Assembly: GCA_000165345.1 (NCBI GenBank)
Contig: CM000431.1
Coordinates: 64,001 to 128,000, forward strand
Direction: 5' to 3'
DNA: 64,000 nt
Shown here: positions 18,451 to 50,508 of the stretch, one piece after another
Layout: each line of letters starts with the position of its first letter
How positions within the stretch are numbered: the stretch's first letter is position 1
Translations under genes and position numbers: made by a program
The notes under the pieces: generated by a model
What the model saw: only the letters and a program-made list of their open reading frames with translations
What the model was told of the DNA's origin: nothing
Databases searched by the model: none

Positions 18451-22267
<3,817 letters not shown>

Positions 22268-28600: not shown

Positions 28601-31254
28601 AAGTACAAATGAGAAGACTCATTAATATGATTCAATCAGCAAATTCCAACAGCTTTATATTCATTGAAGATAACTACTATAGGAATATTTATGGGGATTA
28701 TTTTAATAGCTTCATACTCAAGTATATGTCAATGATAGAATATATATTTGCGATTCTAAGAACACAACCATTATATATTATTAACTTAATGCTGGAGTGC
28801 AGTTTTGGAGAAGAGTTTATCTCCATTCTAAATTGTTTGTATGGATTATTTCCTCCTCAGTTAGAATATGTTGAAGTTTTTGAAACAAAAAATTTCCATG
28901 GGTTAAACGATTCTTTGATTATGCTCGAAATCATTGGAGAAATATTATGTAAAAGAGAATTACAGGAAGCTTTTAGTACAAATGACGTTTTTTGGCCTGG
29001 GAAATCAAAGTTTCTCTACTATTTAAGTTCTGTTGTGTTAAGAGGTCCAGATCTAAGAAGCCTAGTACAGAATCTACTTGATATATATACTCCTACTTCT
29101 TTGGTTTCTGTTATTGCAAAGTTTCCAAAAGAGGTTCTATTGGTTTTGGACTCCTCCTGCCTTGCTCAATATTTAGGAATAAGTCCAAATGATGAGTCTT
29201 TGCCAAAACATTATTTAAATATGGTCAAGTTTGCTGAAGTTGCTTTATTGGTGGGAATATCTGAGAATATTAATAAAAATATAAAATTCCCGAGGATATT
29301 GGAGAGGTTGTTGTATAAGGCATGTAAATTAGTCAATCTCATGGAAATTCCATCATTCAATCCTCTTTTAGATTATAAACAACAAAAAGACCAAGCAATA
29401 CAGCAACCTCTTATAAGATTACTTTTATATGGAATAATACTTCCAATATTGGAACAATGCAATGCTTATTGTACATATTTCTATTTTCCTCTAATTACAG
29501 ATATGAGAATAATGTCCTCAATTCAGCTTTTGGCTCATTCTATCAAAATATTTCTTGCAGGATACTTAAATCAAACTTCTAGTTCTCAGGGATTCTTATG
29601 GATCAATTCCTTAATCAGCTTCTCTAGTTCAATTACTATTAAGATATCAGAAATGGTTAATGAACAAAAAGATGTAACAGATTTATCTTTAACCTATCTC
29701 TCATATAATTCACAGTATTCATTACACTCTGATAATTACCATGTAGTATTAAATCTGGTTGATATCATGGTTATGATTAATTCTATTCAAAAGTATAAGA
29801 ATTTCCTAAGATTAAATTTAATGGATCCTGTCATTAATTCTGTTGAATACTTTTCAAGAAGAGACAAATTATCAATACCTTTTTTTCCTTTAGAGTTTAT
29901 TAATCTGGTAAAAAATGTGAATCTACTGCCAAATTCTGATGGAGGAGGAGTTTTTGTTTCTATTCGAATAAGTCCAAGATGGATTATAAATAATGATGTA
30001 CGCCAAAGCAGAATTTCAAATTATCTAAGAGTTAGTAATATTTCTAGTAATATAGAAATAGAAAACTCGAATAGAAGAGCAAACAGAAAATTCTATGATT
30101 TAGATGAACAAAACTATGATGAAATAAGAGATGAAGAAAATACATGTCTTCCTCCATTAGATACTTCGATGATGTTTTGTCCACTTACAAAAATTGGGAT
30201 GTCACAATCTTTATTACCTAGATTTGAAGCAAATGTTAGAAAATCGAATGGAATATCAGAGTTTGGATTATTTATTAGGTATTTTGAGATACCTGATAAA
30301 AGGAGAGCGATTGAGAAAGGTCTATTAATGTTACCTATAATTACAGCTAGAACAATGTTTGAGTTACTTGAAACTGTTGATGAATATATTGAACAATTTA
30401 AAAGAAAAGAAAATGATAAAAGACAATATGAGCAGTTATCATTCATGTTAGAATTCAGAAAAGTTGTTGAAGAGTTAATGCTTAATTATCAAGATTCCAT
30501 TACACCATTATTAATATGGATTACTAATGAAATAATGGATAGAATTAAACATAGAGCCTATTTAGAACATTTACTTGAAATTGAGGAGAAACTAAGAGAT
30601 AAGAGGAAGTGGTATAAAGACCAATTAAATGAATGGGAAGATGTTATTGAAAAATCAGTCATAAACATGACATTATGGGGGTACAAAGACACTGAATTGA
30701 TTAATTTGCTAAATAGATATTACAAAAACAATATAAATACTACGATGAAGCAAATGGAAAATGTTCTGTATAATACAATGATAAGTGGGTACTATGCAGG
30801 CGAAGATGACTTAACAATGATTAAGAATGGAAATTATATTACAACTGATATTATTAAAAAAAGTATAACATTACCATTCTTATGTTTTCCATTAAGTATA
30901 TTTATTATGAACAATGTAATAAAGATTAAGAGTGATGAGAAAATCTTTAATTTATTTGAGTCACAAAGAAAAACTATGATGAATTTCTTCAGAAGAACAG
31001 CTCAAATGAATAATTGGACAATATTTATTACTTTTACTCCTACATTGGGTCTTGATTGTATAATCACAACAAGTAGATCAGGCTACAAAATTCAAAGTTC
31101 ATTTGAACAAAGAATTATTTGTAAGTTCTATATTACTCCAGACCAAGTAAAGAAAGCAAAGTTTTCAAATTTCCTTTATACGAGACTTTATTCTAATGGA
31201 TTAGTTGAAGTAAATCTACCAAGTTTTGTTTCTTATGTTTATTCCCAAATATAA
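25618..31254 (+). CDS. RCC1-repeat (regulator of chromosome condensation-like) protein, 1878 aa, with two RCC1 propeller regions and a roughly 1000-aa helical C-terminal region of unknown function.
   Basis: More than 12 RCC1 blades carry the hallmark WGxxxxGQLG / GxxHS motifs (for example YAWGVNTNNVLGLG, FAWGSNSNGRLGTG, FAWGDNKYGQLGV, FSWGRGDRGQLGTG, ITWGAGYYGRLGT). Confidence 0.8.
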   Translation: MYATQDQSQLPDVPDFIKNEVKKNAFKKQGGDSLGGHSFTRAASSLNHYFIVAKLKNKGQLYAWGVNTNNVLGLGIENGEFNFPMKVNFFSALEVFQVSCGYSHTAVLVKGISEASGRVYTMGLGDRGRLGYTRGYTEFGNEHDKNDLNESWYTPVPCIVNFPFNAKISRISCGANHSLALSDSGLVFAWGIGQYGCLGTGELNDVYSPVKIEAGPTDKKVLHIAAGARHSLCCNEDGQVFAWGSNSNGRLGTGGSYGMKTVPTQIKSLSQYHITLVAAGESHSGCIDSFGYIYTWGNGGSGKLGHGTQSDCNIPRRIEGISSLPFVQLTLGAFNSMALSQSGEVYIWGAKQHEIISLPTKIDAFDSHICHINSGPYISFAMDVRHNIYLWNNRLLVNSKKSEALNASEEQLYKRMNSKNPVLLPFFQSKAFVDDCIFYMGFNLVDYKGNKVSYEPKSEGGLFSVNRIYKSNGSSEIGSLVGSQIPSWSVRQIACGTSHTLLLVYGGTIFAWGDNKYGQLGVDTRRRKSQNGDKNESFLNEPTEIKFSEPIRRVACGSWHSLCCDIKGNCFSWGRGDRGQLGTGAIRNLYEPAGIVTLKNVIEVAGGELYSACIVACITTGNKDLDTINSGDLWIWGDGDLGKLGLGDHVLKSCIAAPRHLNLGTPIIKVALGSSHTLVLTASGELITWGAGYYGRLGTNSTKSHSNPIKIRFPIKGVQIVDIAVGSYHSMAVSSLGDLWVWGKAENVLSEKDVLTPYIFAKLESPSGVPRIYSIHAFGDVSYAITQSGVLWIWGPENSETENIQGLESSIKIKSHTGRAEMILLPGNAIGVSGSTTHHVCLLASGEVVSWGDPSRGKLGQQDIRNKKYIEDPTLVIQKWNDAKNMLDSVGKGDSSAGLATDKKKNYTKDEGVTTIEELEAFMGELTSNSVHFSKKAKSFEYVQSLLHKEDPRTRKDSISLLEEDLVVLFSSHIEYFRKMKEEEERLRYLIFLAEVQMRRLINMIQSANSNSFIFIEDNYYRNIYGDYFNSFILKYMSMIEYIFAILRTQPLYIINLMLECSFGEEFISILNCLYGLFPPQLEYVEVFETKNFHGLNDSLIMLEIIGEILCKRELQEAFSTNDVFWPGKSKFLYYLSSVVLRGPDLRSLVQNLLDIYTPTSLVSVIAKFPKEVLLVLDSSCLAQYLGISPNDESLPKHYLNMVKFAEVALLVGISENINKNIKFPRILERLLYKACKLVNLMEIPSFNPLLDYKQQKDQAIQQPLIRLLLYGIILPILEQCNAYCTYFYFPLITDMRIMSSIQLLAHSIKIFLAGYLNQTSSSQGFLWINSLISFSSSITIKISEMVNEQKDVTDLSLTYLSYNSQYSLHSDNYHVVLNLVDIMVMINSIQKYKNFLRLNLMDPVINSVEYFSRRDKLSIPFFPLEFINLVKNVNLLPNSDGGGVFVSIRISPRWIINNDVRQSRISNYLRVSNISSNIEIENSNRRANRKFYDLDEQNYDEIRDEENTCLPPLDTSMMFCPLTKIGMSQSLLPRFEANVRKSNGISEFGLFIRYFEIPDKRRAIEKGLLMLPIITARTMFELLETVDEYIEQFKRKENDKRQYEQLSFMLEFRKVVEELMLNYQDSITPLLIWITNEIMDRIKHRAYLEHLLEIEEKLRDKRKWYKDQLNEWEDVIEKSVINMTLWGYKDTELINLLNRYYKNNINTTMKQMENVLYNTMISGYYAGEDDLTMIKNGNYITTDIIKKSITLPFLCFPLSIFIMNNVIKIKSDEKIFNLFESQRKTMMNFFRRTAQMNNWTIFITFTPTLGLDCIITTSRSGYKIQSSFEQRIICKFYITPDQVKKAKFSNFLYTRLYSNGLVEVNLPSFVSYVYSQI

Positions 31255-31290: not shown

Positions 31291-32691
31291 CTAAAATAAT
31301 ATAATTCCAACATTTGAAGGTGAAATTTGAGGTATCTTCCAATTAAACACATAATATCTTAATCTACCGGTACCGATAATAAATTTACTATCTTGAATAA
31401 CTTGTAAATTTTGCATCAGATCCAATGTATTAAAAGCATCACAATTATTATTTTTGGCAGTAATAAGCATTTCATTGAACAATTCTTTTAATGAGCAGGT
31501 ATTTGCAATATTGAAGTATGAATATGCAATATTAATAGTTGGAAATCTTTCATTATTGATGACAGTGGATTCTATTATAAAGAAGCTAAACAAGTCAGTA
31601 ATTTCTTTATTTTTATTTTCTCGAACATAAGTTACAATAACTTTATCAATATTCGTGAAATAATGTTTAACATCTTCAACATTAAAGCATTGATGAATTG
31701 TGATTTTGTCTTGCAAATCTTCAATCTTATCCAGCTTCATATATGCTTGTTTTCCAAGCTCTTTTGAATGGTTAATTTCATCATAGTTTATCAGATTATT
31801 CATGGTTTCGTTGCTGACATCTTTATATTTCATAAAGTAATTTTCGAATAATTTACAGATTTGTTCTGCATCAGAATCTACGGAGGGTCTAAACCCTTCA
31901 ATTCTTTTATCAGCAGGAATACGATGATATTTAATTAAAGAGCTCATGGTCATATTTCTTGGGATTCCAATAAAACCAGCTTCTAATAATTTCTTTACAT
32001 TAATTATACGATGCCAATAAGTTCCAATAGTAAAAGGTTTGGTAATATTCTTCCCACAAGTGTAAATTGATTGAAAGATTTTTTCACATCTGATTCTTCT
32101 TGTAATTTCCTTAATAAGTACAGGGGCAAGTCTTTTAGATCTAAGCTTCTTATGAACGCAAAGAAAATTAACTACAGAAGTATTCATAATGCAATTATGA
32201 ATTCTAACTTTGATTGGGATTGCGGAAATAAATCCAACCATTTTCTTTGTTTCATTAACTCTGACTCCAACAAGCCAGTTCTTTTTTTGACCAGGGACAC
32301 AAAGAGCCCATCTAAGAAACTCCTTTGAATAATTAAATCTAAATTGGGAATCGTCATCTTCAACATAATGGTCTTTTAATAATTGGTAAGTATCTTCAAA
32401 ATCTTGAGATTCTATATCCCATAAATTACAATCAAACCAAGAGAATCCATCTGGTAGCTTATATATTTCTTTTCTAAAAGAATCTGGTTCAATTTCAATG
32501 GGTCCAAATGAATATTCACTGGAAGAATCATCGTTTTGAACTACTGGTTGAGTATTCCAGAATTTGTGTGGTTTGATTGCATTTGCGGCAGTGTTCATAA
32601 AGCTACCTAAGCTCATTTCTTTCAGAAGATTTGTGATCTTCTTGGTATTTGAAATGGAAGATTCTGAATTCTCTGGGGTTTCACCACTCAT
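31291..32691 (-). CDS. NMT: Glycylpeptide N-tetradecanoyltransferase (N-myristoyltransferase), 466 aa.
   Basis: FWNTQPV N-terminal motif, the acetyltransferase-fold core FLCVHKKLRSKRLAPVLIKEITRR, and a C-terminal ...GTGRLRYYVFNW. The length matches NMTs. Confidence 0.85.
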   Translation of the reverse strand: MSGETPENSESSISNTKKITNLLKEMSLGSFMNTAANAIKPHKFWNTQPVVQNDDSSSEYSFGPIEIEPDSFRKEIYKLPDGFSWFDCNLWDIESQDFEDTYQLLKDHYVEDDDSQFRFNYSKEFLRWALCVPGQKKNWLVGVRVNETKKMVGFISAIPIKVRIHNCIMNTSVVNFLCVHKKLRSKRLAPVLIKEITRRIRCEKIFQSIYTCGKNITKPFTIGTYWHRIINVKKLLEAGFIGIPRNMTMSSLIKYHRIPADKRIEGFRPSVDSDAEQICKLFENYFMKYKDVSNETMNNLINYDEINHSKELGKQAYMKLDKIEDLQDKITIHQCFNVEDVKHYFTNIDKVIVTYVRENKNKEITDLFSFFIIESTVINNERFPTINIAYSYFNIANTCSLKELFNEMLITAKNNNCDAFNTLDLMQNLQVIQDSKFIIGTGRLRYYVFNWKIPQISPSNVGIILF

Positions 32692-33252: not shown

Positions 33253-34107
33253 ATGAAAATAGAAGATAGCGTGATAGTGGTTACAGGTGGGATGAGTGGG
33301 TTAGGTAAAGCAGTTGTGGAGGAGCTGTTAAAGGAAAACCCAAGAAAGGTGTGTTTAATGGATGCAGTGCTAAAAGAAGGTGAATTGGAAGAAGAGCCAA
33401 TAAATAAGTGTGAAAAATACTGTGTAGATGTGACAGACTATAATTGTATAAAAAGTGCAGCCAAGTCAATAATTGATAAATATTCAAAGATAGACGCAGT
33501 GGTGCATTGTGCAGGTATTACTCATTGTCCAACACCAATAGTACAGAAGGATGATAATGGAAAAATAATGGAGAATAATGAGGATATTCCAGAAATTTGG
33601 GGAAAAGTCGTGAATGTAAATGTGATTGGTACATTGAATGTCATTCATTGTTTATCTCCATTTTTGGCTATGAATCAAGGAAACTCGCATGGGTTTGAAA
33701 AAGGAGTATTTATTTTGGTTTCAAGTAGTACAGCAAGAGATGGTCCTGCTCAAAATCAGGGTTATATTGCATCAAAAGGAGCAATTAATTCGTTAACTTT
33801 GCCATTAGCTAGAGAGTTGGGCCCGCTGGGAATTAGAGTTGTCACAATTGGTCCAGGGGTTTTCGATACTCCAATGTCAAAGCACGCAATGAGTGAAAAA
33901 ACTTCTTCTACTTTGTTAAAGTCGATTCCATTAGGAAGATTTGGCGTTCCAAACGAATTTGCTGAAACTGTTGTAAATGTTGGGTTAAAGTCTGAATACA
34001 TATCAGGAGAAATTATTTATTTGGATGGCGCCTGGAGGCCTCCATTTATAACTAGTGGGAGTGTGAGAAGGTTATCAATCCAAAAATCATCAAGTAATGA
34101 CGAATAA
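33253..34107 (+). CDS. Short-chain dehydrogenase/reductase, HSD17B10 / 3-hydroxyacyl-CoA dehydrogenase type-2-like, 284 aa.
   Basis: Rossmann TGGxSGLG (VVTGGMSGLGKA), an NAD-binding acidic residue, and the catalytic S...YxxxK (SSTARDG...YIASKGA). Confidence 0.75.
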   Translation: MKIEDSVIVVTGGMSGLGKAVVEELLKENPRKVCLMDAVLKEGELEEEPINKCEKYCVDVTDYNCIKSAAKSIIDKYSKIDAVVHCAGITHCPTPIVQKDDNGKIMENNEDIPEIWGKVVNVNVIGTLNVIHCLSPFLAMNQGNSHGFEKGVFILVSSSTARDGPAQNQGYIASKGAINSLTLPLARELGPLGIRVVTIGPGVFDTPMSKHAMSEKTSSTLLKSIPLGRFGVPNEFAETVVNVGLKSEYISGEIIYLDGAWRPPFITSGSVRRLSIQKSSSNDE

Positions 34108-34490: not shown

Positions 34491-34563
34491 TGACCTGGTA
34501 GCTCCAACGGTAGAGCGTCTGACTCCAGATCAGACGGTTCAGGGTTCGAATCCCTGTCGGGTC
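34491..34563 (+). tRNA. tRNA-Trp (anticodon CCA at 34524-34526).
   Basis: Hand-folded cloverleaf. Acceptor GACCTGG/TCGGGTC (two G-U pairs). D stem gctc/gagc. Anticodon stem tctga/tcaga with loop cTCCAga. T arm caggg-TTCGAAT-ccctg with B box GGTTCGAATCC. Discriminator A. CCA is not encoded. Confidence 0.85.
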
Positions 34564-34564
34564 A

Positions 34565-34572
34565 CTTTTTTT
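34565..34572 (+). terminator. Pol III terminator T-run (T8) immediately 3' of the tRNA.
   Basis: cTTTTTTTTg directly follows the discriminator base. Confidence 0.7.
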
Positions 34573-34580
34573 TGAGCAGG

Positions 34581-34638
34581 CCAATTGGCGCCGGCGGCAA
34601 TTGTTATTTAGATAAACTGTGGGATGTGTATGCATGCA
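34581..34638. promoter_or_regulatory. Near-palindromic CAATTGGCGCCGGCGGCAATTG (20 of 22 positions symmetric) plus a TGCATGCA box at 34631-34638. It lies between the tRNA-Trp gene and the 34668 ATG.
   Basis: Read directly. Two inverted GGCGCC/GGCGGC cores. Confidence 0.45.
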
Positions 34639-34667
34639 AGGAATAAATGTAAAGAAGAATATCAGTA

Positions 34668-35792
34668 ATGTTCAAGTCGATAAAAAAGAAGAGAGATGAA
34701 TTTTTGTTTAAGTGGAATAGAAGGAGGTATAGTTATAGAATGGGATGGTATTATTCGATGTTGAGTATCGTTTCTGGAATAATTATTTTGGTTAGCTTTA
34801 TATTATTTTTCTTATTAAAAATGAATAGTTGTACTGGTAGGAGATGTGGGATTTTTCGAACATTTTCATGTTCTCCAACTAGTGTATCTCTTTTATCTTC
34901 AGCATTCATATCTTTGGGAAGTATTTACTCAATAAAATCTGCTTTTAGTTATATGCTTTCCAGATTATTATATAGTTTTGCAAATTATAGAACAACAGAC
35001 TTTATGGCTCTTGGAAAATTTGCTTCAATACTCGGAGCTTTGGTTAAGCATATTCCATTTCTTATTGCTTTATGTACAATTTGCAATGGGATAATATGTA
35101 TAACTGGGGTAATTTATATATTAATTGGACTTTGTAGCCATTCTTATTCTTCAGCAACTCAGATAATTGTAGACAATTGCCGTCTATATTTTTCAAATTG
35201 TGAAAATCCCACAGTCAATTCAATTTTTGATTGTAATGATCCTTCTCAGCTAATTTCATCCCCTTTTCTACAGCTAAGGTGTTTACCAGGCTCATCTGAA
35301 ATTTGTAGATATTCACAAGAACTTAAGTCAGGCAGTAATCCGTGTACAAAAGATATGCTAAAGAGCTATTTAATTTCGACAGGAGATAGTGAAATCATTG
35401 AAGAGTTGGAAAAACTGACAGGTAGGACCTTATCAATAAGTATGCCTAATCAAGTTGACAAAGAAAATAGTAGGAAAATAATCGAGAGAAAACTTGGCTC
35501 AACATATATTTCAACATTACAAGGCGTTAGCAATCGAGAATTACTGGATCTATACCTATTACCGTCTTCGCCTTCAGACCAAAGTGAATTAATAAGCAGC
35601 TATGGCTTCAGCGATCTATATGCAGCAGCTCGTGTTTGGATAGCTGCTGCATGCTATACTTATGTCTCGACGACCATTCTATTCTTCTTCGTTAAATACT
35701 TCAGCCCTCAGGATTCGTGTTTTTCTTTTGTTAGAAGTCCAAATGAATTCTTTCTTCTGAAAATACTAAATATATTTACTCCTTGGCAGTAA
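34668..35792 (+). CDS. Hypothetical multi-pass membrane protein, 374 aa, with a Cys-rich extracytoplasmic segment.
   Basis: At least four hydrophobic helices (IVSGIIILVSFILFFLL, LSSAFISLGSIYSI, IPFLIALCTICNGIICITGVIYILIGL, C-terminal AAACYTYVSTTILFFFV). A cysteine-rich loop CRLYFSNCENP...CNDP...CLPGSSEIC...CTKD. No recognised family. Confidence 0.55.
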   Translation: MFKSIKKKRDEFLFKWNRRRYSYRMGWYYSMLSIVSGIIILVSFILFFLLKMNSCTGRRCGIFRTFSCSPTSVSLLSSAFISLGSIYSIKSAFSYMLSRLLYSFANYRTTDFMALGKFASILGALVKHIPFLIALCTICNGIICITGVIYILIGLCSHSYSSATQIIVDNCRLYFSNCENPTVNSIFDCNDPSQLISSPFLQLRCLPGSSEICRYSQELKSGSNPCTKDMLKSYLISTGDSEIIEELEKLTGRTLSISMPNQVDKENSRKIIERKLGSTYISTLQGVSNRELLDLYLLPSSPSDQSELISSYGFSDLYAAARVWIAAACYTYVSTTILFFFVKYFSPQDSCFSFVRSPNEFFLLKILNIFTPWQ

Positions 35793-36221
35793 ATAAAATA
35801 AAGCAAAATATATATAACTTTAAAGGACTGGAGACAATTACTTTCATCTCTTTTTTCATAAAGTAATAAAAAGCTTTTAGGAAATACACCATAAAAATGT
35901 TTATTTTTGGCTTTCATCTACTATTTGAATTTATCTTCTCTGTAGATATAATAATTATTCTCTAATTCAAAAAAAAAAGCTGTAAGATAACAAACAATAA
36001 CTCGGATAATTAAAGATGTTGTTTTGAAAACTGATGTTGTTACATCTGAAAGCTGAAATTAATAAAAAAAAAAAAACTGTTTAAAAAATGATTAATTTCT
36101 TTTTTAAAATTTTATACCTTTGTAAACTTTCTTTTTTTCTTTTTTTTTTAAAAAAAACTTCGATACCACCTCTTCCTCATCCTTTTGAAATAATATTTAC
36201 ATATAAGGCATCAGGACCGTA

Positions 36222-36256
36222 TGCATGCAATTTCCCGCCCAAATTTGGGCGGAAAA
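36222..36256. promoter_or_regulatory. TGCATGCA box followed by a near-perfect 26-bp palindrome TTTCCCGCCCAAA|TTTGGGCGGAAAA (a double E2F-like site).
   Basis: Read directly. It sits in a 3'-3' convergent gap, 36-70 bp beyond the CAF1 stop codon. Confidence 0.45.
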
Positions 36257-36291
36257 CTTGGAGAATTGGTGATAAAGACATGAAGATCGCT

Positions 36292-37125
36292 TTATTTGAC
36301 AATAGTTGGAGGTGGTAAGCCAAAACCATATATCTGTCCATTAAAGAGGTTATCATCAACTTGGGAGTTGAGATGGAGTTTAAATAACTTGAAGAATGTG
36401 CAGCATGTAACAAGTGCGTCGGAACCAGCCTGATGTGCAATTCCAATCCTTTGAATTTTAAGATGTTCAGAAAGTTTTTGTAGTGAGGAAAGGTGACTAA
36501 GGCTGGAAAGTTGTTTCAAAATAAACTTTAGATCATAAAGCGTTGGAAAAAGTGCTTTAACAAGTTCTATAAAGTTTGTTTCAGTTTCTGGGAGTGGTTG
36601 TGAACTTAGAATCTTTACAAGGTAAGCAAAATCATAGCATCCATGGAAGCTAATCCATTTAACTTTAGGATTAAGAACAAGTCCGCTTCCATACATATAT
36701 TCGCCAAAACATAGAAAATCAATTCCGCTATTAAGGTGTTTATCAAATTCAATACCAGAGTGACGAAGAAATTGAATTGATTCCTGAGAATAGATATCAC
36801 ATTCCATATCAAACTTAAAATTAAATTGAAATGTTGAACAAATATTCGTAGGTGCTTGGCCATATTTATTTCGGAAGCTTAAACCAATCTGAATTACTTT
36901 AAGTAAATCCACATTAAATCGGACTGTTTGGTAATAATACTCATAATAATTATTTGTAGGACGTACCACTACACCTGGGAACTCTGTATCTATAGCGACA
37001 TATGGAAAGTCATCCATGATTTCTGATATCATCTGGAATGCCTCGTTAATATTATTCTGCCAAACTTCATATATAACTCCCTTTTTGGAAGCCACTGTCG
37101 CATTGTTATTAGCATAATTGGTCAT
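36292..37125 (-). CDS. CAF1: CCR4-NOT complex CAF1/POP2-family deadenylase (DEDD ribonuclease), 277 aa.
   Basis: N-terminal IYEVWQNNINEAFQMISEIMDDFPYVAIDTEFPGVV (the DTEFPG motif), IQIGLS, HGCYDFAYLVK, HQAGSDALVT, and a C-terminal ..QIYGFG. Confidence 0.85.
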   Translation of the reverse strand: MTNYANNNATVASKKGVIYEVWQNNINEAFQMISEIMDDFPYVAIDTEFPGVVVRPTNNYYEYYYQTVRFNVDLLKVIQIGLSFRNKYGQAPTNICSTFQFNFKFDMECDIYSQESIQFLRHSGIEFDKHLNSGIDFLCFGEYMYGSGLVLNPKVKWISFHGCYDFAYLVKILSSQPLPETETNFIELVKALFPTLYDLKFILKQLSSLSHLSSLQKLSEHLKIQRIGIAHQAGSDALVTCCTFFKLFKLHLNSQVDDNLFNGQIYGFGLPPPTIVK

Positions 37126-38212: not shown

Positions 38213-40161
38213 GCAGAATGGAGAATAAGCACATCACTTTTGGTTTTTATAGTTGATTAGAAATAATCAACGTAATTAGCTCTTCAGTCTTATATATCAT
38301 AATAATAATTATTATTTTAATCACCAGTCTTTATCAAGTTCTTATATACATCTACTTCTTAGAAAATTGTAACTTTTATTTCATGCTTATATGCATGTAT
38401 GCATATATGCATGCATTTGCGGGTATATAAATAATATATATCTATACTTAAACCCATTGCATGCAATATCTATTTTAAATGAATACTTATGTAATTATAA
38501 ACTTCAAATTACATGCAGCTTTTAATTCATTGATTTTTTATGCATTAATTAAATAAAATTGATTCTTTGAATTCCATAAATATAATTATCAAGTTTTTTC
38601 TCTTTAGTTTTGTTTTCTGAATATATTTTTTTCTTTAAATCCACCATCCCACCTAAACTTTTCGAGTTAAATGATTTCTGTTATTTAAAGAAACATTTAT
38701 CATTCTCGAATTCATAAAATTAAAATGACTTAAGGAGCTTTATTAAATTATTCCCACATACTTCAACTTCTCTTTTTTATAATTAATTAACTGAAATTAT
38801 TCATGAAAAATAGCCAAAGTTTACCCCCCCATGCAAAAAATGGATATTTGGAGTGAGTTTATTATATTTTAATTGCAAGTAAGTTCCCGCCTAGTTCTTT
38901 AGCACGTCTCTAAAAATAAAAATTTTTATTCACAATAAAAGAGTCGTGTAAAGCCAGGAAAAAACATAAGAGGAGTTTTAATAGTGCCACTTTAAAGCAA
39001 GAGCTGTGCACAGCTAATTTTTGACTTCCGATTAGTTGAGTGAGTCTTGGTCTAATTTATAAAGGCTTTTATAGGTGTATGATTCCAGTATCTAAAAGTG
39101 CTTGTAATTTATTTCTATATAGAAAACGTTGAAATATTACAGGTAAGGCTGAGACTTTTTAATCTTTGAATTGGAGTGGGTTTTTTTAGAATATATGAAA
39201 TTACCGTTGGTTCCTTTAGGTATTTAGAACAGAGTACATTCCACTTTAAAACTGGATTGCTATTTTTTATAATTATTTATTACCTTTACTGCTTATATAT
39301 TCAAATTGAAAGCTACCCCATAAACTCATTTTTTTTTTTTCTGAAGCCAATACTGAGTTATAAACAATTCATTGAGAAGCAGTTAAAAGGAAGATTAATG
39401 GATTTGTGATACAATTGGAATTATTCTCAAAACGAAAAATATATATATATTATATATTTTTCTCTTTCTCAATCGCTCTCTTTCTTTGGTTTAAGCACCA
39501 TAAATAAAATTAAAGTTTTAACAGAATAATAAGTTCTGCTAATTGTTTTCATTATTCCAAGTGAATTCTGTGTTATTCTAAACAGACAACATTGAAACTT
39601 TATTGACTTGCCATTCTTGCAAACAGTTAATGGTGTTAGAGAGTTGATAGAGAAAGATTGAAAACCTTTGTTTGTTTGTATGTATATGTATATATATATA
39701 TATATATATACTTCAAATTTTTTTTTCATCTTTTTTTTTGGATTATTGAGAAGATAGTGAAAGATTACTGAGATAAATTTCATTCAAAAATCTGTTGCTT
39801 TCATTTTTTTCTGGCACCTCTAAGCAACAATTAAGATAAAGTATAAGGCATTAAAAAGAAAAGATCCTCAAATAATTACTTCTCAACCAAATTATTTGTG
39901 TTGAATTTCCAGCGTTACTTTTGTCTAATTTATTTGGTTGAAGAGGATAACTTGAAATTACCAAATACTTCTTTAAACCAAGTTGCTCTTCGGAAGAAAT
40001 ATACTTATAAATAATTACATCGATAACCATTATAGAGGTTTTAAAAGGTTTTAAAATAATTAATTAACCACCCATTCAATTAAAGAATTAAAAAACAGAG
40101 ATTCATATATTACCAATAAACTTTCTTCACTTTTATTACTTTCCGATAATCACACAAAGAA

Positions 40162-43100
40162 ATGTCTGATAAAAAAACATCCACCATTATATGTGGATTT
40201 GAAAAGAAAAATCTGGAAGCCATAAAAACCTGTCTTGAGACGCATTTAAACAGAGAGAATATCTTAGATAATGCGGTAATACAAGAATGCTTCAATAAGG
40301 ATGTGTTGGGATTTTCTTTGGACTCTGTATCAAATTTGCAAGAATTAAAGGAAGTTTGGTATAGTTTATTTGGAAAAGATCCAAATACCAATAGAAAAGA
40401 GCTAATGCATGCGATCGGTATTAGTACTGGAATGTCTGAGGTTCTTAATCTTTCAATATACACACAATACGGGAATGAGATGAATTTAGGTATTTCCCAA
40501 TCAAATGAAGAGAAGAAGCTGAATGAAGAGGAATCCATGAATGCTTTGGTTGATACTTCAAAATTGATATTGGAATTTCTGGAAAATGGATGTGAAAAGG
40601 ATATTTATATTAAACCAATTTTCAAAGCTGAACGCACGACTCTAATTTTGCGTGATCTTGAGAATGATGTTATAGAGAATGAGATCTTTGACTTACTTAG
40701 TAAATGCCCTCATTTTCATACAGAAGAAACTTCTGAAAATAAAACAAATGAGTATAGTCTTGATGCTGTTAAGAAACTGGTCGTCAATTTTCGGAAAGAA
40801 GTTCATGGTACCTGGTTTATCACTCTTAAAACTGAGGATTTGACAACAAAAGTTGCCTTATGGTTACGTGATCAAAAACTGAGAGATAACAATAGTTCTT
40901 TATTACGAGTTGGAATAAAATCAGAGCACCCAATTGCTAGTCTTTTATCAGTATTGTCGATGAATAAGGGTATCCAATCAATACATAACAGAATGAGCAA
41001 CTTGCAGTTATCAGGAACTGAGATGGGAATTGGGATTCCTCCAATCTTATCAACTCTAAATGCTCCGCTTTCCAACTTACCTCCAAATATATCGAGTAGT
41101 GAACTTATAAACGTGAGCGCTGGAAATGTACCAAACAGTACTGTTTTAGATGGTCCCTCTTCAAATAGAAGAACTGCGTTGGGAAATGTTAGCCCAAATA
41201 TGAGTTATATGTTGAATACCCCAGGTTGCTCAAATAGCGGATTCATTCAAACTCACCCTCAGATAAATAGGCCCAACCAAGAGAATGATCATTCGACTAA
41301 GGATACAGGAAATGAACCACAAATAGGTATGGACAATTTGAATAGTCAGAATCCTGAGCATTTAACTGCGCCTCTTCCTGTAATGTATCCATATCATAGA
41401 GGTATTGGAAGAGCTATTGGAGTTCCGAACCATACAACTCCTTTAAATATCTATGGGCCAATACCAGGGGCTCCTAATGGTGGAATAATTGCTCCAATTA
41501 TTGTTGTTCCCGGAGCTACAATACCAGGAGGTATGGCTACATCTCCACTCCCTTCTCCAACACCGGAAGTAGGCTCACCAAATGCATCAAAAACAGGTGA
41601 TACGGAAGTTACCAAGTCCCCAAAGAATAACCATAAGAGGAGAGGTTCAAAGTCGTCATATATTAGTGATTCTGATACAAAAAGTTTATCTCCAAATATT
41701 TCCAACAGAAGAAGTAGCCCAGATGCTACCAATAATGTCAAACCTGCAAGCGAAGTCGAGAATTGTGGAGCCTTACCTGTGGCTGATGGTATGAACTCAG
41801 TAATTAGAGGAATTCCTCAGGGAGCTACCACAATGATACATGGAATAACTCCCTTTTATTATGGAATCTCAGGACTTTCAGAGGTACAGCCAGTCAATTT
41901 ACAATACTTAGGGGGCGGACCTCATCTTGGGCCTCATCCCCACATTTTCATTCATGGGAATCCACAATTCCATTATCATCATCAGATCGATATAGGAGCT
42001 CCTGGAGCAGCTGTTCAAGGAGATTCTGGAGACATGGAATCAAGCCCACCAAATACTATATCGAATTCTGAAGCCAACAAAGACAACATACAGCATATAA
42101 AACCTCAAATACCAACAATGTTCCCTGCTGGATATTATCATAATGTTCATTATATTGGAGATGAATCTTTAGGAGCTATTGGAAACCATGGATTTTCTGC
42201 TGGTAGCTTTGCAATCAATAATATTGGAGGAGACGGTATTGTTGTACCTGGGAATTTAAATGCTCAGGGCCGGAGTTTTTGGGTTAGAAACCCTTCAAAC
42301 AATACTGGAAACCAAAAATTTAAGGCTAATGGACGAAAGAACAATAATTCCAGTGGCAATCGTACAGGTAATAAATCCAGCCTTAACCCTTCCAACCCAA
42401 AGAAAAATAATAATCAAAAATCGTCTTTTGTGAATGGAACTAATCCAGAAGGCACATACTCTGAACCAAAGGTAGGATCGAAAACAGCAAGTATTTCCAA
42501 ATCTCCAGTAAATGACGCTATTACAAAGCATGATGAAATTGATCAATATGAAAATGCAGAAATGTGCTCAACCAATAGCTCTAAACAATATCCGAGTAAT
42601 GAGAAAGAAATCGAGTGTTCACCATCCGAAGAAGCACATATTGGAGACAACTCATCTATAACCGAAAATACAGCAAATACTTGTACTTCCTGTGCTAATG
42701 ATGATAACCAAAACCGAATTTCCAAGAAACTCCCGAATGAATCTTCAAAATTACCAATAGATGAGCCCCAAGACAAGCAGCAAACATTTAATAAGACCTT
42801 CAAACCCTTTTTGAATTCTGCCGGCAAGTCAAGAGGCCATAGAAATAGCAAAAACTCTTCAAACGGTGGTGGGAACTCTGAAGGAAAGGGAAACCTTGAA
42901 TATAGTGAGCATAGATCCAATCTAGCCAATGATAAATCAAAAGTACCTGATGGTACTAAAGGTAATAATGGACCAAACAATCAGGCTGCCGAGACTGGAT
43001 TAAATTATCATCAAAGAAGAAGAACCTCCAGGCAAATTAATACTGGTAGTGGTGGTTTTGGTGGAAGAGAAAATGGAAAATTTACACATGGAAAGTATAA

Positions 43101-43344
43101 TAATGGATATGAAAACAACCATTTTCGCTTAAAGCGTACAACTGAAAATGAACAGTCACACTTTAATTTTAATAATCATGGAAAACAGTCTGATGGATAT
43201 TCGAATAACAATCATTCCTATGGTAATAAGTCAATTAACCATAAAGGCAAAGGAAATGCAGCCAAAAGCAATTACCAAGAATCAAAAGAAATTGGCTTGG
43301 ATCATTTTCCATCATTATCTGATGCAATGGCAACCAAAAAGTAG
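40162..43344 (+). CDS. Hypothetical protein, 1060 aa. The N-terminal 300 aa are structured. The remainder is Ser/Asn/Gly/Pro-rich and disordered.
   Basis: Long ORF from the first ATG. No family recognised. I considered a La/RRM-like region (KPIFKAERTTLILRDLEN...) but could not confirm it. Confidence 0.6.
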   Translation: MSDKKTSTIICGFEKKNLEAIKTCLETHLNRENILDNAVIQECFNKDVLGFSLDSVSNLQELKEVWYSLFGKDPNTNRKELMHAIGISTGMSEVLNLSIYTQYGNEMNLGISQSNEEKKLNEEESMNALVDTSKLILEFLENGCEKDIYIKPIFKAERTTLILRDLENDVIENEIFDLLSKCPHFHTEETSENKTNEYSLDAVKKLVVNFRKEVHGTWFITLKTEDLTTKVALWLRDQKLRDNNSSLLRVGIKSEHPIASLLSVLSMNKGIQSIHNRMSNLQLSGTEMGIGIPPILSTLNAPLSNLPPNISSSELINVSAGNVPNSTVLDGPSSNRRTALGNVSPNMSYMLNTPGCSNSGFIQTHPQINRPNQENDHSTKDTGNEPQIGMDNLNSQNPEHLTAPLPVMYPYHRGIGRAIGVPNHTTPLNIYGPIPGAPNGGIIAPIIVVPGATIPGGMATSPLPSPTPEVGSPNASKTGDTEVTKSPKNNHKRRGSKSSYISDSDTKSLSPNISNRRSSPDATNNVKPASEVENCGALPVADGMNSVIRGIPQGATTMIHGITPFYYGISGLSEVQPVNLQYLGGGPHLGPHPHIFIHGNPQFHYHHQIDIGAPGAAVQGDSGDMESSPPNTISNSEANKDNIQHIKPQIPTMFPAGYYHNVHYIGDESLGAIGNHGFSAGSFAINNIGGDGIVVPGNLNAQGRSFWVRNPSNNTGNQKFKANGRKNNNSSGNRTGNKSSLNPSNPKKNNNQKSSFVNGTNPEGTYSEPKVGSKTASISKSPVNDAITKHDEIDQYENAEMCSTNSSKQYPSNEKEIECSPSEEAHIGDNSSITENTANTCTSCANDDNQNRISKKLPNESSKLPIDEPQDKQQTFNKTFKPFLNSAGKSRGHRNSKNSSNGGGNSEGKGNLEYSEHRSNLANDKSKVPDGTKGNNGPNNQAAETGLNYHQRRRTSRQINTGSGGFGGRENGKFTHGKYNNGYENNHFRLKRTTENEQSHFNFNNHGKQSDGYSNNNHSYGNKSINHKGKGNAAKSNYQESKEIGLDHFPSLSDAMATKK

Positions 43345-44523
43345 ATAACTCAACTTCTTTACTTGATTGTAAATCCACTGAACTTGAAGAATTGAAGTGT
43401 CAGGTCACTCTTTTTTTTAAAACTGAGCTCATCTGTTCAACTTTTTCTCCATGTTGACGCTTTGTAAATCTTTAAAATATTGTCTTGGACCTTAAAACAA
43501 AGCCTTAACGCTTCAATATTTTATACGCTAAACCAAAAACCTCATCTCTCTTTATTTTCAATGTTGAATTCAAAAACCCATCAATCCAGCCATTTTTTGT
43601 CTTTTTTTGCAAGCAACTGCCTGTTATTTTTTACCGGTGCATGCATACATATTTTTTTGTGCATGTACCTTTCTCATGTGGAAAGGCGGGGACTCCGCGA
43701 CTAGAAAAATAACTATAAATTGACTTGGAGATGCAGTAAAAACTAATTAAAAAACAATAATTAATTTATGAAAATAAAATAAATGGGGCGAATAGTGGTG
43801 ATAGGGAAAGAAGAATCAAGCCTTCCAGATGGCTTACTTCGGGATATTTTTTTTTTTTGCTTTAATAAAAGAAACTTAAAATAAATGAATTTTTAAATAA
43901 AATAATACATTTTGAAAATAAACCCTGAGGCAGATTATAATTAATTGATGCTTCTTTGACTTTTCGACTAATAGCAATAATAAGAATAATTGGTTCTGTT
44001 GAAAATACACTCGGCCAAGGCAGATAATGTAACTATATACCAGACCGAGGACCCATTCTAATCTTAGTGTGCTTCATTACGAATATTTACTCCCAAGCAT
44101 CTTGAAAGTTCTTAGAAGAGCAAGTTGTTTTCATGATTTTTTTAACTTCAAATTCGAATCAATTAAACGCATTAAATGGTATATTTGGACATTTACTATA
44201 TTAATGCTAACAAGGCCTGACATGTACTAACCTTGTGGAGGTAGAGATAAAGATATAAATAATCAAATCAAGAAAAGATTAGAGATTCTGAACTTAATAC
44301 CATTCTAGAATTTAATTCTGAGAGAGCTACCTCATTAATCAAGTAATTTTTAGTCATGAAAGTCAGGATATTTTTTTGATAGTTTTCAAATTACAATTTT
44401 TTTTTTTTTTTAAGTTAAATTGATTGATCAGAAAGACTGAGAAGATCATAAATATATTGCAAAATTATTTTACTTATATATTTGCTCCGAATATTATAAT
44501 TAAAATGATTAGATCTATTTTAG

Positions 44524-49851: not shown

Positions 49852-49870
49852 GTCATATTGGAATATCCGC

Positions 49871-49900
49871 TTCCCGCCAACTTCAGATCTATGGCGGGAA
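49871..49900. promoter_or_regulatory. Perfect 9-bp inverted repeat of E2F-like half-sites (TTCCCGCCA, 12-bp spacer, TGGCGGGAA). A third copy ttccgcc follows at 49904-49910.
   Basis: Read directly. It lies 20-50 bp past the stop codon of the 47116..49851 gene and about 600 bp upstream of the ABC transporter ATG. Confidence 0.5.
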
Positions 49901-50508
49901 CCGTTCCGCCTTTAAAAAAATAAGCTTTATATGGGAAAAAAAAAGGAATAAAACTTGTGAAACAATTTTTCAAGCAATAATAAAAATGAGGAACTGAAGT
50001 TATTGGTAAGAGGTTTGAGAATAAGAACGTATTATTCTACAGAACTTTGATTATTTAAGTATTTTAACAATTTATAGTTAATGTAATATTAATAGTCATA
50101 TTTTCCCATGTGCAATATCTAAAAAATTCAGTGCACTCAAATGGCGCTCACTTTTTCTCCCAAATCCCAAACCCAAATTAGTGGAATGGAATTAAAATAA
50201 AAAAATTACTAAAGGAAAAAGAAACAGGTTAAGGATTTGAGAATACTTTAAATGCAATTAACTTAATATAATTTTAAGCTTTTATATAAATAATTCAATT
50301 TAGAGAAACGAATTAAGGAATAAACTTTAATATTATAAGTATTGGGAAATAGAAACTAATTTTAAGAAAAGGGAATTTTTAAATTTAATATTATTTGAAG
50401 TCAAGGCAGCATTTTTAAAAAGTTAACTTTAATGAAATTGATTGGCAATCTAATTACTAGGCTCTAAGGCTATTCTGTAATCAATCTATAACAATCCAAG
50501 ACGTAACA

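Follow-up and report, generated by a model that had tools for sequence, protein, structure and literature searches.

Locus organization and promoter-type motifs

The DNA analysed is a 64-kb window of Cryptosporidium parvum chromosome 3, in which a 499-bp tail-to-tail gap separates a Cryptosporidium-specific membrane-protein gene (CPATCC_001004, EAK89227.1; 34668–35792, plus strand, with its TAA at 35790–35792) from the gene for the CAF1/Pop2 deadenylase (CPATCC_001005, EAK89226.1; PF04857; 36292–37125, minus strand, with its TAA at 36294–36292). The gap is unusually long by comparison with two other convergent gaps in the window, which measure 36 and 40 bp; a second long convergent gap, at 43345–44523, has TGCATGCA together with GGCGGG. 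Among the relatives, the orthologous gap measures 85 bp in C. serpentis, with neither the motifs nor the conserved block described below, and 930 bp in C. xiaoi, where the E2F and AP2 motifs are both absent. A sequence-only reading of the window had placed a promoter-type motif cluster in the CAF1/membrane gap, 36–70 bp past the CAF1 stop, and its coordinates and sequence are exact.

The cluster consists of two elements. The first, TGCATGCA (36222–36229), is a palindromic ApiAP2_1 motif that matches the octamer (T/C)GCATGC(A/G) exactly; motifs of this type are bound in vitro by the AP2 domains of cgd2_3490 and cgd1_3520 (PMC4117751). The second is a double E2F/DP-type site (36231–36256), a 26-bp near-palindrome TTTCCCGCCCAAATTTGGGCGGAAAA (TTTCCCGCC ... 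GGCGGAAAA) that is complementary at 12 of its 13 positions and maps to 103,250–103,275 of CP044420.1. Its left arm, TTTCCCGCC (36231–36239), is an exact match to the E2F consensus and its right arm is TTTGGGCGGAAAA; the canonical C. parvum E2F/DP consensus includes TTTCCCGCC and TTTGGCGGG (PMC3734150) and corresponds to motifs 3 and 4 of Oberstaller 2013, with a TTTSSCGC consensus and a 6-bp GC core between T-rich and A-rich flanks. Both are published C. parvum promoter motifs (Oberstaller 2013 and 2014), and the description of the cluster as promoter-type is thus well founded. A CArG/MADS-box reading of CCAAATTTGG was rejected because the spacer ranges in length from 6 to 8 nt among species.

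Both motif types are about 10–20 times enriched in the window. TGCATGCA occurs in 12 copies against 0.63 expected from shuffled sequence (none of 100 shuffles reaches 12), and TTTSSCGSS occurs seven times against 0.82 expected; ten of the 12 and six of the seven, respectively, lie outside long open reading frames. E2F-like clusters have a background rate of about 0.08–0.12 per 100 bp of non-coding DNA, and GC-containing palindromes with arms of at least 13 nt are found at two loci in the window against 0.15 expected. The claim that the combination sits 5′ of genes everywhere else is mostly correct, but it fails for the second long convergent gap and for two copies of TGCATGCA inside a coding sequence, at 27450 and 27462. 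If transcribed, the 26-bp palindrome is predicted to fold into a 13-bp hairpin, which is more stable in minus-strand RNA (−19.9 kcal/mol, z −4.2) than in plus-strand RNA (−15, z −2.4).

To the left of the motifs lies a proximal spacer (36158–36221), which read on the minus strand contains GGTATCG (plus-strand CGATACC, 36161–36167), a purine-rich GAGA/G-box-like run and CTGATGCCTTG. Alignments show low overall identity for this spacer (28–54%), with GATACC kept in seven lineages, L005 included, and a purine run that is G-box-like in C. ubiquitum and chipmunk genotype I; these boxes may serve as promoter elements. Beyond the spacer are homopolymer A/T runs (36131–36157), comprising a T-rich segment at 36131–36149 and A8 at 36150–36157. 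They occur on the left side of the motif cluster only, and no homopolymer run of six or more is present within 100 bp to its right.

Conservation of the motif cluster

Conservation in syntenic regions, a check that the sequence-only reading had proposed, is positive for the cluster. All eight intestinal-clade genomes have E2F-type cores at 30–75 bp from the CAF1 stop, and six of them also have a TGCAT/CATGCA core, while the sequence flanking these cores has diverged to about 35–60% identity. E2F-type cores form an inverted pair in C. tyzzeri (perfect), C. meleagridis, C. ubiquitum, L020 (with perfect 8-nt arms), L005 and C. canis. In chipmunk genotype I the dyad has decayed and a new GTTGGCGGGCAAAT has appeared about 20 nt closer to CAF1, which indicates turnover of a binding site and not maintenance of a hairpin. 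The changes seen in the E2F arms across species remain within the DNA consensus (TTTCCCGCC, TTTGCGCGCC, TTGGCGGG), with no free drift of compensatory pairs. The known promoter of the membrane-protein gene, taken as a control, displays core retention and site turnover alike in the same species. The ApiAP2_1 core is located at the orthologous place in C. tyzzeri, C. meleagridis, chipmunk genotype I, L005 and C. canis and is lost from the orthologous gaps of C. ubiquitum and L020; the full TGCATGCA octamer is confined at this site to the parvum group.

Conserved non-coding block and candidate polyadenylation signals

Much of the rest of the gap is well conserved. Identity over 35793–36135 is 86% to chipmunk genotype I and 79% to C. 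ubiquitum, with a peak of 88–95% at 35940–36020, compared with 57–78% for other intergenic sequence, 61–79% for third codon positions and 84–91% for coding sequence. This delimits a conserved block (35880–36100, core 35940–36040) whose conservation over 35880–36060 is at the level of coding sequence and above the neutral level. Every reading frame of the block is interrupted by stops, and its core contains a 1-nt indel. It is single-copy, with no paralogue of the core detected by nhmmer in the window or in the orthologous loci of relatives, and it is absent from C. canis, L005, C. xiaoi and C. serpentis; in C. canis and L005 the motifs are present but the block is not. The least conserved part of the gap is the 150 nt nearest the CAF1 stop.

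Structure searches of this region were negative. RNAalifold of the block on both strands gave a weak energy and a positive covariation term, and single-sequence folding of the gap gave z-scores of −1.8 to +0.45 with no signal besides the palindrome. A tRNA scan and an Rfam 15 scan of the window, the latter at the gathering threshold, returned only a tRNA-Trp (34492–34565), and relaxing the scan of the gap to E-values of up to 10 produced only irrelevant families (best E-values 0.08–10), none credible. Inspection of the gap identified no conserved C/D or H/ACA boxes, Sm sites, TTTAGG telomerase template or U1/U2/U5 signatures. A known structured small RNA (snRNA, snoRNA, RNase P/MRP, SRP or another Rfam 15 family) was therefore discarded as an identity for the block, given the lack of an Rfam match and of covarying structure. 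Since no stable or covarying structure was found, any RNA function of the block is putative, and it could act as DNA. Splice-site readings of the gap (a minus-strand branch point, U-tract and AG at 35957–35990; a plus-strand GTAAGA at 35982) are speculative and yield no open reading frame. The short Logan contig L018 ends at a break within a homopolymer tract and is therefore uninformative as transcript evidence.

The Cryptosporidium poly(A) signal is A(A/G)TAAA, and candidates occur at three places. On the plus strand, a signal at a conserved position (35792–35802) overlaps and follows the stop codon of the membrane-protein gene, as AATAAA in the parvum group and, at the same place, as AATGAA in chipmunk genotype I, C. 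ubiquitum, L020, L019, L005 and C. canis. From this signal the membrane-protein mRNA is predicted to end near 35815–35835, and the block is therefore probably not its 3′ untranslated region (3′UTR). On the minus strand, an AATAAA at 35905–35900 does not vary among the six lineages possessing the block; it is a putative poly(A) signal, either of a minus-strand unit or, equally compatibly, of a long CAF1 3′UTR for which it would be the distal signal. A second minus-strand AATAAA (36291–36296) overlaps the CAF1 stop in the parvum group and chipmunk genotype I, where it may be a proximal CAF1 signal, and is absent at that stop in C. ubiquitum, L005 and C. canis. Depletion of poly(A) hexamers on the minus strand was tested as evidence of a through-transcript and was not significant.

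Proposed function as the promoter of a small non-coding RNA

The explanation that we favour, tentatively and at somewhat less than even probability, is that the motif cluster is a promoter for an unannotated non-coding RNA of roughly 200–260 nt on the CAF1 strand. The cluster would be a selectively maintained E2F/DP and ApiAP2 module, a typical C. parvum Pol II promoter, placed directly against the 3′ end of CAF1; in this compact genome, promoters elsewhere likewise border on the gene that precedes them. E2F/DP heterodimers would occupy the two inverted half-sites at 36231–36256 and an AP2 protein would occupy TGCATGCA, with the A/T runs at 36131–36157 keeping the region nucleosome-poor. Transcription would start leftward on the minus strand at about 36090–36135 and cross the conserved block, which would form the body of the RNA, and the transcript would be cleaved and polyadenylated after the invariant AATAAA at 35905–35900, giving a product that is missing from the C. 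parvum annotation. Of this scheme, the motifs with their enrichment and conservation, the conserved block and its lack of coding potential are observed; factor binding, start position, direction and 3′ end are inferred, as is the RNA itself.

Published work on C. parvum provides a precedent. The 100 bp upstream of its long non-coding RNAs (lncRNAs) have E2F and ApiAP2_1 as their two highest-ranking motifs, and these RNAs tend toward the 3′ ends of genes (Li et al., 2021; PMC7840661), and the general suggestion of the sequence-only reading, that a non-coding or antisense RNA starts at a gene 3′ end, agrees with this property. E2F also dominates among the motifs of open chromatin and of the spacers between cistrons on one strand (bioRxiv 10.1101/2025.01.17.633476). 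Within the window there is a parallel in a triple E2F cluster 20–60 bp past the stop of the gene at 47116–49851 (plus strand), followed by A-runs and then by a same-strand gene.

The direction of firing is suggested by the A/T runs. Among the co-occurrence cases examined in parts 1–2 of Table S3 of Li et al. (2021; PMC7840661), 11 of 11 lncRNAs have a T-run between the E2F/AP2 motif and the start site, and the presence of A/T runs only to the left of the cluster points to leftward, minus-strand firing. The resulting minus-strand order is motif, A/T run and conserved block, with a predicted distance from motif to start of 100–160 bp, somewhat beyond the 100-bp span of the lncRNAs. The order of the two motifs was also considered as a sign of direction: AP2 precedes E2F in four of five promoters in the window, but the portion of the lncRNA catalogue covered is split six to seven, with three mixed, and this indicator was consequently dropped.

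Counting against a small RNA are the structureless block, its lack in C. canis and L005 and the silence of the lncRNA catalogue. The supplementary table of the Li et al. preprint has no entry with CPATCC_0010040 or CPATCC_0010050 as the sense, upstream or downstream gene, and 13 k-mer probes from the locus had no match among the 324 lncRNA sequences compared, out of 396 catalogued. The catalogue admitted transcripts of at least 200 nt observed in more than two stranded RNA-seq samples and discarded read-through-like ones (PMC7840661), and its time points include none before 24 h, when E2F/DP is highest (PMC7840661; bioRxiv 10.1101/2025.01.17.633476). Because short, read-through-like and early transcripts would have been missed in this way, the absence is partly excusable, and absence from the catalogue is not absence of RNA.

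Alternative explanations

The cluster and the block could instead lie within a long 3′UTR of CAF1, with CAF1 transcripts passing the motifs and the block and ending after the AATAAA at 35905–35900. The block would then be a 3′UTR regulatory region and the palindrome a 13-bp hairpin, with the E2F-like sequence being secondary or an internal promoter of the sort suggested for cistrons within polycistronic transcripts. We regard this as unlikely, though the likeliest of the rivals. It is consistent with the location of the block, the invariant AATAAA and CAF1 all on one strand, and a transcript merged with CAF1 would escape lncRNA calling, which fits its absence from the catalogue; E2F motifs are, moreover, common between the cistrons of read-through or polycistronic transcripts (bioRxiv 10.1101/2025.01.17.633476). 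The position of the poly(A) signals cuts both ways, as C. ubiquitum, L005 and C. canis lack a canonical signal near the CAF1 stop and have their first one 300–420 nt downstream, whereas in the parvum group and chipmunk genotype I the AATAAA that overlaps the stop could end the mRNA early. The hairpin is similarly ambiguous. It is stronger on the CAF1-sense strand because the sole imperfection is a G·U pair there, and alignment inspection indicates the same in C. ubiquitum and chipmunk genotype I; one C. canis copy, however, has its G·U pair on the opposite strand, and the resulting bias of 3 to 1 is not significant. The arm changes that stay within the E2F DNA consensus without free compensatory pairs, and the new E2F core that arose by site turnover near the decayed dyad of chipmunk genotype I, argue against selection on a transcribed hairpin. 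The poor conservation of the proximal 150 nt and the insignificant depletion of poly(A) hexamers on the CAF1 strand also fail to support a through-transcript.

A second alternative, which we consider quite improbable, is that the promoter fires rightward on the plus strand and yields an antisense lncRNA over the 3′ portion of CAF1, in which case the conserved block would be unrelated. Such an arrangement would be typical of the organism, in which 363 of 396 lncRNAs are antisense, with a 3′ bias on the sense gene and E2F and ApiAP2_1 as the top upstream motifs (PMC7840661). The cluster is suitably placed 36–70 bp from the CAF1 stop, and palindromic motifs can act in either direction. Yet no catalogued lncRNA has CAF1 (CPATCC_0010050) as its sense gene, four plus-strand k-mers from 36306–36420 have no match among the 324 sequences compared, out of 396 catalogued, and the motifs are not separated from a rightward start by an A/T run as in the 11 of 11 lncRNAs examined in parts 1–2 of Table S3. 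The 3′ end of CAF1 is also not more conserved than the rest of its coding sequence, and the conserved block would be left unexplained.

It is very unlikely that the cluster is a downstream element with no transcript of its own, such as a 3′ enhancer, silencer, insulator or roadblock in which the palindrome binds E2F/DP or forms a cruciform or hairpin. The element is conserved, its palindrome is far above chance and thermodynamically strong, and it is placed exactly between two converging units with no transcript catalogued there. The sequence-only reading had offered palindromes of this kind as bidirectional terminators or insulators, but none is present in the 36- and 40-bp convergent gaps of the window or in the 85-bp gap of C. 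serpentis, and the 930-bp gap of C. xiaoi contains no E2F/AP2 motif; a general termination device is therefore not supported. Neither a hairpin or roadblock terminator nor a 3′ enhancer is described in the Cryptosporidium literature surveyed, and this explanation again does not account for the conserved block.

A composite of these possibilities can be imagined in which the E2F dyad has a dual use. At the DNA level it would recruit E2F/DP to initiate the small RNA. In CAF1 read-through transcripts its 13-bp GC hairpin, or else a protein roadblock at the site, would mark the boundary of the converging units and tie the stability or the 3′-end formation of the CAF1 mRNA to E2F activity; the core at 35940–36040 would be a clade-specific functional RNA of an undescribed kind. 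This proposal is highly speculative and we give it little weight.

Finally, an unannotated small protein gene, which the sequence-only reading had also suggested, has next to no probability: the only candidate is a 69-aa open reading frame (35708–35917, minus strand) downstream of the cluster, annotated in C. hominis TU502 (XP_667563.1) and a second C. hominis assembly (PPS92988.1) and in C. tyzzeri (CTYZ_00002740), as a `hypothetical protein' in some annotations, but it overlaps the 3′ end of the membrane-protein gene, is not conserved (its ATG is lost in C. meleagridis and it stops after three codons in chipmunk genotype I and C. ubiquitum) and was judged non-coding. Six-frame cross-species tblastx of the gap likewise found stops in every frame and no conserved open reading frame, and the most conserved core carries the 1-nt indel.

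Comparison with known systems and biological implications

The proposed promoter of a small minus-strand RNA most closely resembles the C. parvum lncRNA promoters described by Li, Baptista, Sateriale, Striepen and Kissinger (2021; PMC7840661), in which E2F/DP1 and ApiAP2_1 motifs lie close together at the 3′ end of a coding gene with an adjoining T-run, non-coding downstream sequence and conservation among Cryptosporidium species. It differs from these in that no lncRNA has been called at the CAF1 locus, that the proposed RNA is shorter and lies close to the 200-nt cut-off, and that the E2F site is a 26-bp inverted double site. In addition, the proposed RNA would follow CAF1 in tandem on the same strand within a tail-to-tail gap, while 309 of the 363 antisense lncRNAs stand head-to-head with the gene upstream (PMC7840661). 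The E2F motifs described in the spacers of polycistronic transcripts and in ATAC-seq peaks (bioRxiv 10.1101/2025.01.17.633476) share with the CAF1 locus a position right after the upstream stop and ahead of a same-strand unit, an arrangement that permits both read-through and internal starts, but the unit proposed downstream of CAF1 is non-coding and unannotated. A similar case of E2F in a spacer of this kind occurs in the window at 49868–49912.

The membrane-protein gene promoter (34566–34667) resembles the CAF1-end cluster in combining an E2F-type GC core with TGCATGCA within about 100 bp and in having conserved cores and diverged flanks; unlike that promoter, the CAF1-end cluster has no protein-coding gene immediately downstream. 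Inverted double E2F sites are also known from animal cell-cycle promoters (DHFR, E2F1), in which the halves overlap as TTTSGCGCSAAA. The CAF1-end site has the same two inverted half-sites and the same dyad of T-run, GC core and A-run, but its halves are everted (CGCC ... GGCG) and separated by an AT spacer of 4–8 nt, the length of which depends on the species.

The candidate non-coding unit is thus most likely an instance of a feature type already known in C. parvum and not a new type. With it the roughly 400 lncRNAs known in this parasite, in which gene regulation is still little understood, would gain one further candidate, and current concepts would stay as they are; the locus also offers a compact, conserved E2F double site on which the function of E2F/DP could be tested. 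If the small RNA exists, the C. parvum annotation misses a conserved non-coding gene beside the CAF1 deadenylase, and a search rule would follow from it, in that unusually long tail-to-tail gaps with E2F/AP2 motifs, of which there are two in the window, would probably be hidden transcription units and not spacer.

Gene context and motif cluster

The window belongs to C. parvum chromosome 3, and the three nearest long ORFs encode proteins identical to C. parvum Iowa II/ATCC entries: N-myristoyltransferase (NMT; 31291-32691, minus strand), a membrane protein (EAK89227.1/CPATCC_001004; 34668-35792, plus strand) and the CAF1/Pop2 deadenylase (EAK89226.1/CPATCC_001005; 36292-37125, minus strand). 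A short-chain dehydrogenase gene (33253-34107) and a tRNA-Trp gene (34492-34565), both on the plus strand, lie between the first two. The gap between the stops of the membrane-protein gene and CAF1 (35793-36291) does not differ in the ATCC assembly, its palindrome lying there at CP044420.1:103250-103275, and is unusually long: two further tail-to-tail gaps of the window measure 36 and 40 bp. Elsewhere, an assembly gap of 500 N (20327-20826) within an AT-rich region divides two long ORFs on the minus strand, 18451-20325 and 20318-22267; the composition profile shows GC values of 0.08-0.11 because of this N run.

The motifs that the sequence-only reading described in the gap are all present at their positions, namely the AP2_1-type octamer TGCATGCA (36222-36229) and a double E2F/DP dyad (36231-36256), a 26-mer that is a near-perfect palindrome complementary at 12 of 13 positions. 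The octamer occurs 12 times in the window (0.63 expected), the E2F-type pattern TTTSSCGSS seven times (0.82 expected) and GC-containing palindromes with arms of at least 13 nt at two loci (0.15 expected). Nearly all copies of TGCATGCA and the E2F-type pattern are intergenic; the claim that the combination lies 5' of genes everywhere else does not hold as a universal rule, as the convergent gap 43345-44523 contains TGCATGCA and GGCGGG and two copies of TGCATGCA are in coding sequence.

The E2F/DP motif of C. parvum, [C/G]GCGC[G/C] and GGCGGG with TTTCCCGCC/TTTGGCGGG, is the top over-represented upstream motif of the genome, and GCATGCA ('AP2_1') is bound in vitro by the AP2 domains of cgd2_3490 and cgd1_3520 (PMC3734150, PMC4117751). 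E2F likewise dominates among the motifs of sporozoite open chromatin and is found in same-strand intercistronic spacers (bioRxiv 10.1101/2025.01.17.633476). A CGATACC box (GGTATCG on the minus strand; 36161-36167) lies ∼55-60 bp to the left of TGCATGCA and is kept in seven lineages, including an intestinal-clade locus (L005) that lacks the conserved block described below and most of the spacer.

Conservation of the motif cluster

The syntenic locus was compared in ten other genomes: C. tyzzeri, C. meleagridis, chipmunk genotype I, C. ubiquitum, L020 (related to C. ubiquitum), L005, two C. canis assemblies, C. xiaoi and C. serpentis. E2F-type cores occur 30-75 bp from the CAF1 stop in all eight intestinal-clade genomes, the background for such clusters in non-coding DNA being about 0.1 per 100 bp. 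Six of the eight also have a TGCAT/CATGCA core, which C. ubiquitum and L020 have lost, and identity around the cores (36200-36290) falls to about 35-60%. The core variants TTTCCCGCC, TTTGCGCGCC and TTGGCGGG all remain within the E2F DNA consensus. The dyad of chipmunk genotype I is degraded, with a new GTTGGCGGGCAAAT ∼20 nt away, a change that by sequence comparison is binding-site turnover and not the upkeep of one fixed sequence. The membrane-gene promoter (34566-34667), used as a positive control, behaved likewise in these species, with both cores kept in all intestinal-clade species examined; this promoter occupies the short space from the tRNA-Trp terminator T-run to the ATG and carries a palindromic CAATTGGCGCCGGCGGCAATTG and one TGCATGCA. 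Such motifs are absent from the orthologous gaps of C. xiaoi (930 bp) and C. serpentis (85 bp). The element is thus conserved in synteny within the intestinal clade, and we take it to be functional DNA. Enrichment and conservation together exclude a chance origin of the cluster.

The C. canis orthologous gap (L002 4979-5298 and L006 5104-5441) has a GC content of 50-51%, versus 25-31% in other intestinal-clade species, and its similarity to C. parvum is confined to the initial ∼50 nt and the motif cluster. One C. canis assembly has an extra E2F copy (GGCGGGAAATTTTGTGTGGCGGG).

A conserved non-coding block

The left two-thirds of the gap is conserved above neutral sequence. Identity to C. parvum over 35793-36135 is 86% in chipmunk genotype I and 79% in C. 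ubiquitum, compared with 66-78 and 57-70%, respectively, over four other intergenic regions, 70-79 and 61-71% at third codon positions, and 89-91 and 84-88% in coding sequence. The identity profile dips at 35820-35880, peaks at 88-95% over 35940-36020 and collapses over 36100-36200. This block is single copy and is missing from C. canis, L005, C. xiaoi and C. serpentis. It is non-coding, since it has stops in all frames and a 1-nt indel in its core. It matches no Rfam family, and neither strand shows a covarying or unusually stable structure. The single candidate ORF, of 69 residues on the minus strand (35708-35917), overlaps the 3' end of the membrane-protein gene; the C. hominis TU502 and C. 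tyzzeri annotations list it as a hypothetical protein (XP_667563.1 and CTYZ_00002740, respectively). Because its ATG is lost in C. meleagridis and early stops interrupt it in chipmunk genotype I and C. ubiquitum, it is probably an artefact of gene annotation.

Transcript ends and direction

Directly after the membrane-gene stop, at the same position, stands AATAAA in the parvum group or AATGAA in all other species. This looks like the poly(A) signal of that gene, which places the predicted 3' end of the mRNA around 35815-35835, short of the block. The six lineages sharing the block all keep a minus-strand AATAAA (35905-35900) unchanged. Another AATAAA, lacking in C. ubiquitum, L005 and C. canis, overlaps the CAF1 stop in members of the parvum group and in chipmunk genotype I.

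Orientation is uninformative here because the two motifs are palindromes. The AP2-distal, E2F-proximal order is seen in four of five promoters in the window; upstream of lncRNAs, part of Table S3 of Li et al. (2021; PMC7840661) gives six cases of one order, seven of the other and three mixed, and this order was dropped as an indicator of the plus strand. In the co-occurrence cases examined from parts 1-2 of that table, a T-run at -14 to -75 lies nearer the start site than the E2F/AP2 motif in 11 of 11. Here the sole homopolymer runs (36131-36157) are to the left of the motifs, with none within 100 bp to the right, and the conserved block starts just past them.

A same-strand parallel exists in the window, where three E2F sites 20-60 bp past the stop of 47116-49851 (plus strand) are followed by A-runs and the next plus-strand gene. 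This cluster (49868-49912; CTTCCCGCCAAC, ATGGCGGGAAC and GTTCCGCCTTTAAA) starts 20 bp after the stop, and the ATG of the next long ORF (50509, plus strand) follows it at a distance of 600 bp; a GTAAGA-like donor at ∼50005 hints at a possible unrecognised 5' exon of that downstream gene.

Proposed function and alternatives

Our tentative preference is that the motif cluster is the promoter of a downstream unit on the CAF1 strand yielding a non-coding RNA. E2F/DP would hold the dyad and an AP2 factor TGCATGCA; minus-strand transcription would start at ∼36090-36135 and end past the AATAAA at 35905-35900, giving a putative RNA of ∼200-260 nt. The locus would work in the manner of the lncRNA promoters driven by E2F/AP2 that Li et al. 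(2021) described at gene 3' ends, and like same-strand intercistronic spacers with E2F.

In the sole genome-wide lncRNA catalogue, that of Li et al. (2021), the preprint table names neither CPATCC_0010040 nor CPATCC_0010050 as the sense, upstream or downstream gene of any lncRNA; the closest entries are Cp_lnc_318 at CPATCC_0009990 and Cp_lnc_319 at CPATCC_0010400. Thirteen sequence probes from the locus matched none of 324 of the 396 catalogued lncRNA sequences, and the motif table has no entry with the sequences of this site. That catalogue excluded transcripts shorter than 200 nt and read-through-like ones and did not include time points before 24 h (PMC7840661), whereas E2F and DP expression peaks before 24 h (bioRxiv 10.1101/2025.01.17.633476); its silence for these reasons weakens the proposed RNA and does not refute it. 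A detected transcript is the defining feature of catalogue members, and the locus, which has no catalogued one, is therefore not classed among them; it is best called a new candidate of a known kind.

A long CAF1 3' UTR reaching across the gap as far as that AATAAA (35905-35900) would agree with the strand, with the three lineages lacking a proximal poly(A) signal, with the stronger minus-strand hairpin (-19.9 versus -15 kcal/mol) and with the empty catalogue. However, it fits poorly with turnover that preserves an E2F consensus and with the poor conservation of the proximal 150 nt, and we consider it rather unlikely. A plus-strand antisense RNA over CAF1, although in agreement with the published 3'-end bias, lacks a catalogue entry and a T-run and leaves the block unaccounted for; it is distinctly unlikely. 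That the element acts without a transcript, or as the bidirectional terminator or insulator entertained in the sequence-only reading, is very doubtful: it is absent from other convergent gaps and from the C. serpentis orthologue, and so is no general device. The small protein gene also proposed there is contradicted by the stops in all frames and the unconserved 69-residue ORF and is scarcely credible.

Other candidate loci and significance

A second long tail-to-tail gap (43345-44523; 1180 bp), between 40162-43344 (plus strand) and 44524-46812 (minus strand), carries TGCATGCA (43638) and GGCGGGG (43685). A GC-richer plus-strand stretch of ∼75 nt (∼43784-43860), ∼100 bp downstream and ending in T12, is a possible small RNA, for which Rfam at E up to 1 gave nothing credible. 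Within the coding sequence of an RCC1-repeat gene (25618-31254, plus strand), two copies of TGCATGCA 12 bp apart form a palindrome with 11-nt arms (27447-27472), a possible internal or antisense promoter. The region 38213-40161, 1.9 kb without a long ORF, has two copies of TGCATGCA (38408 and 38458), CCCGCC at 38886 and the only other GC-containing palindrome with 13-nt arms in the window (38382-38413); it is a possible site of additional unannotated units.

What makes the CAF1 gap noteworthy is the combination of a conserved double E2F site with a block conserved at the level of coding sequence. As a rule, long tail-to-tail gaps with promoter motifs probably conceal transcription units.
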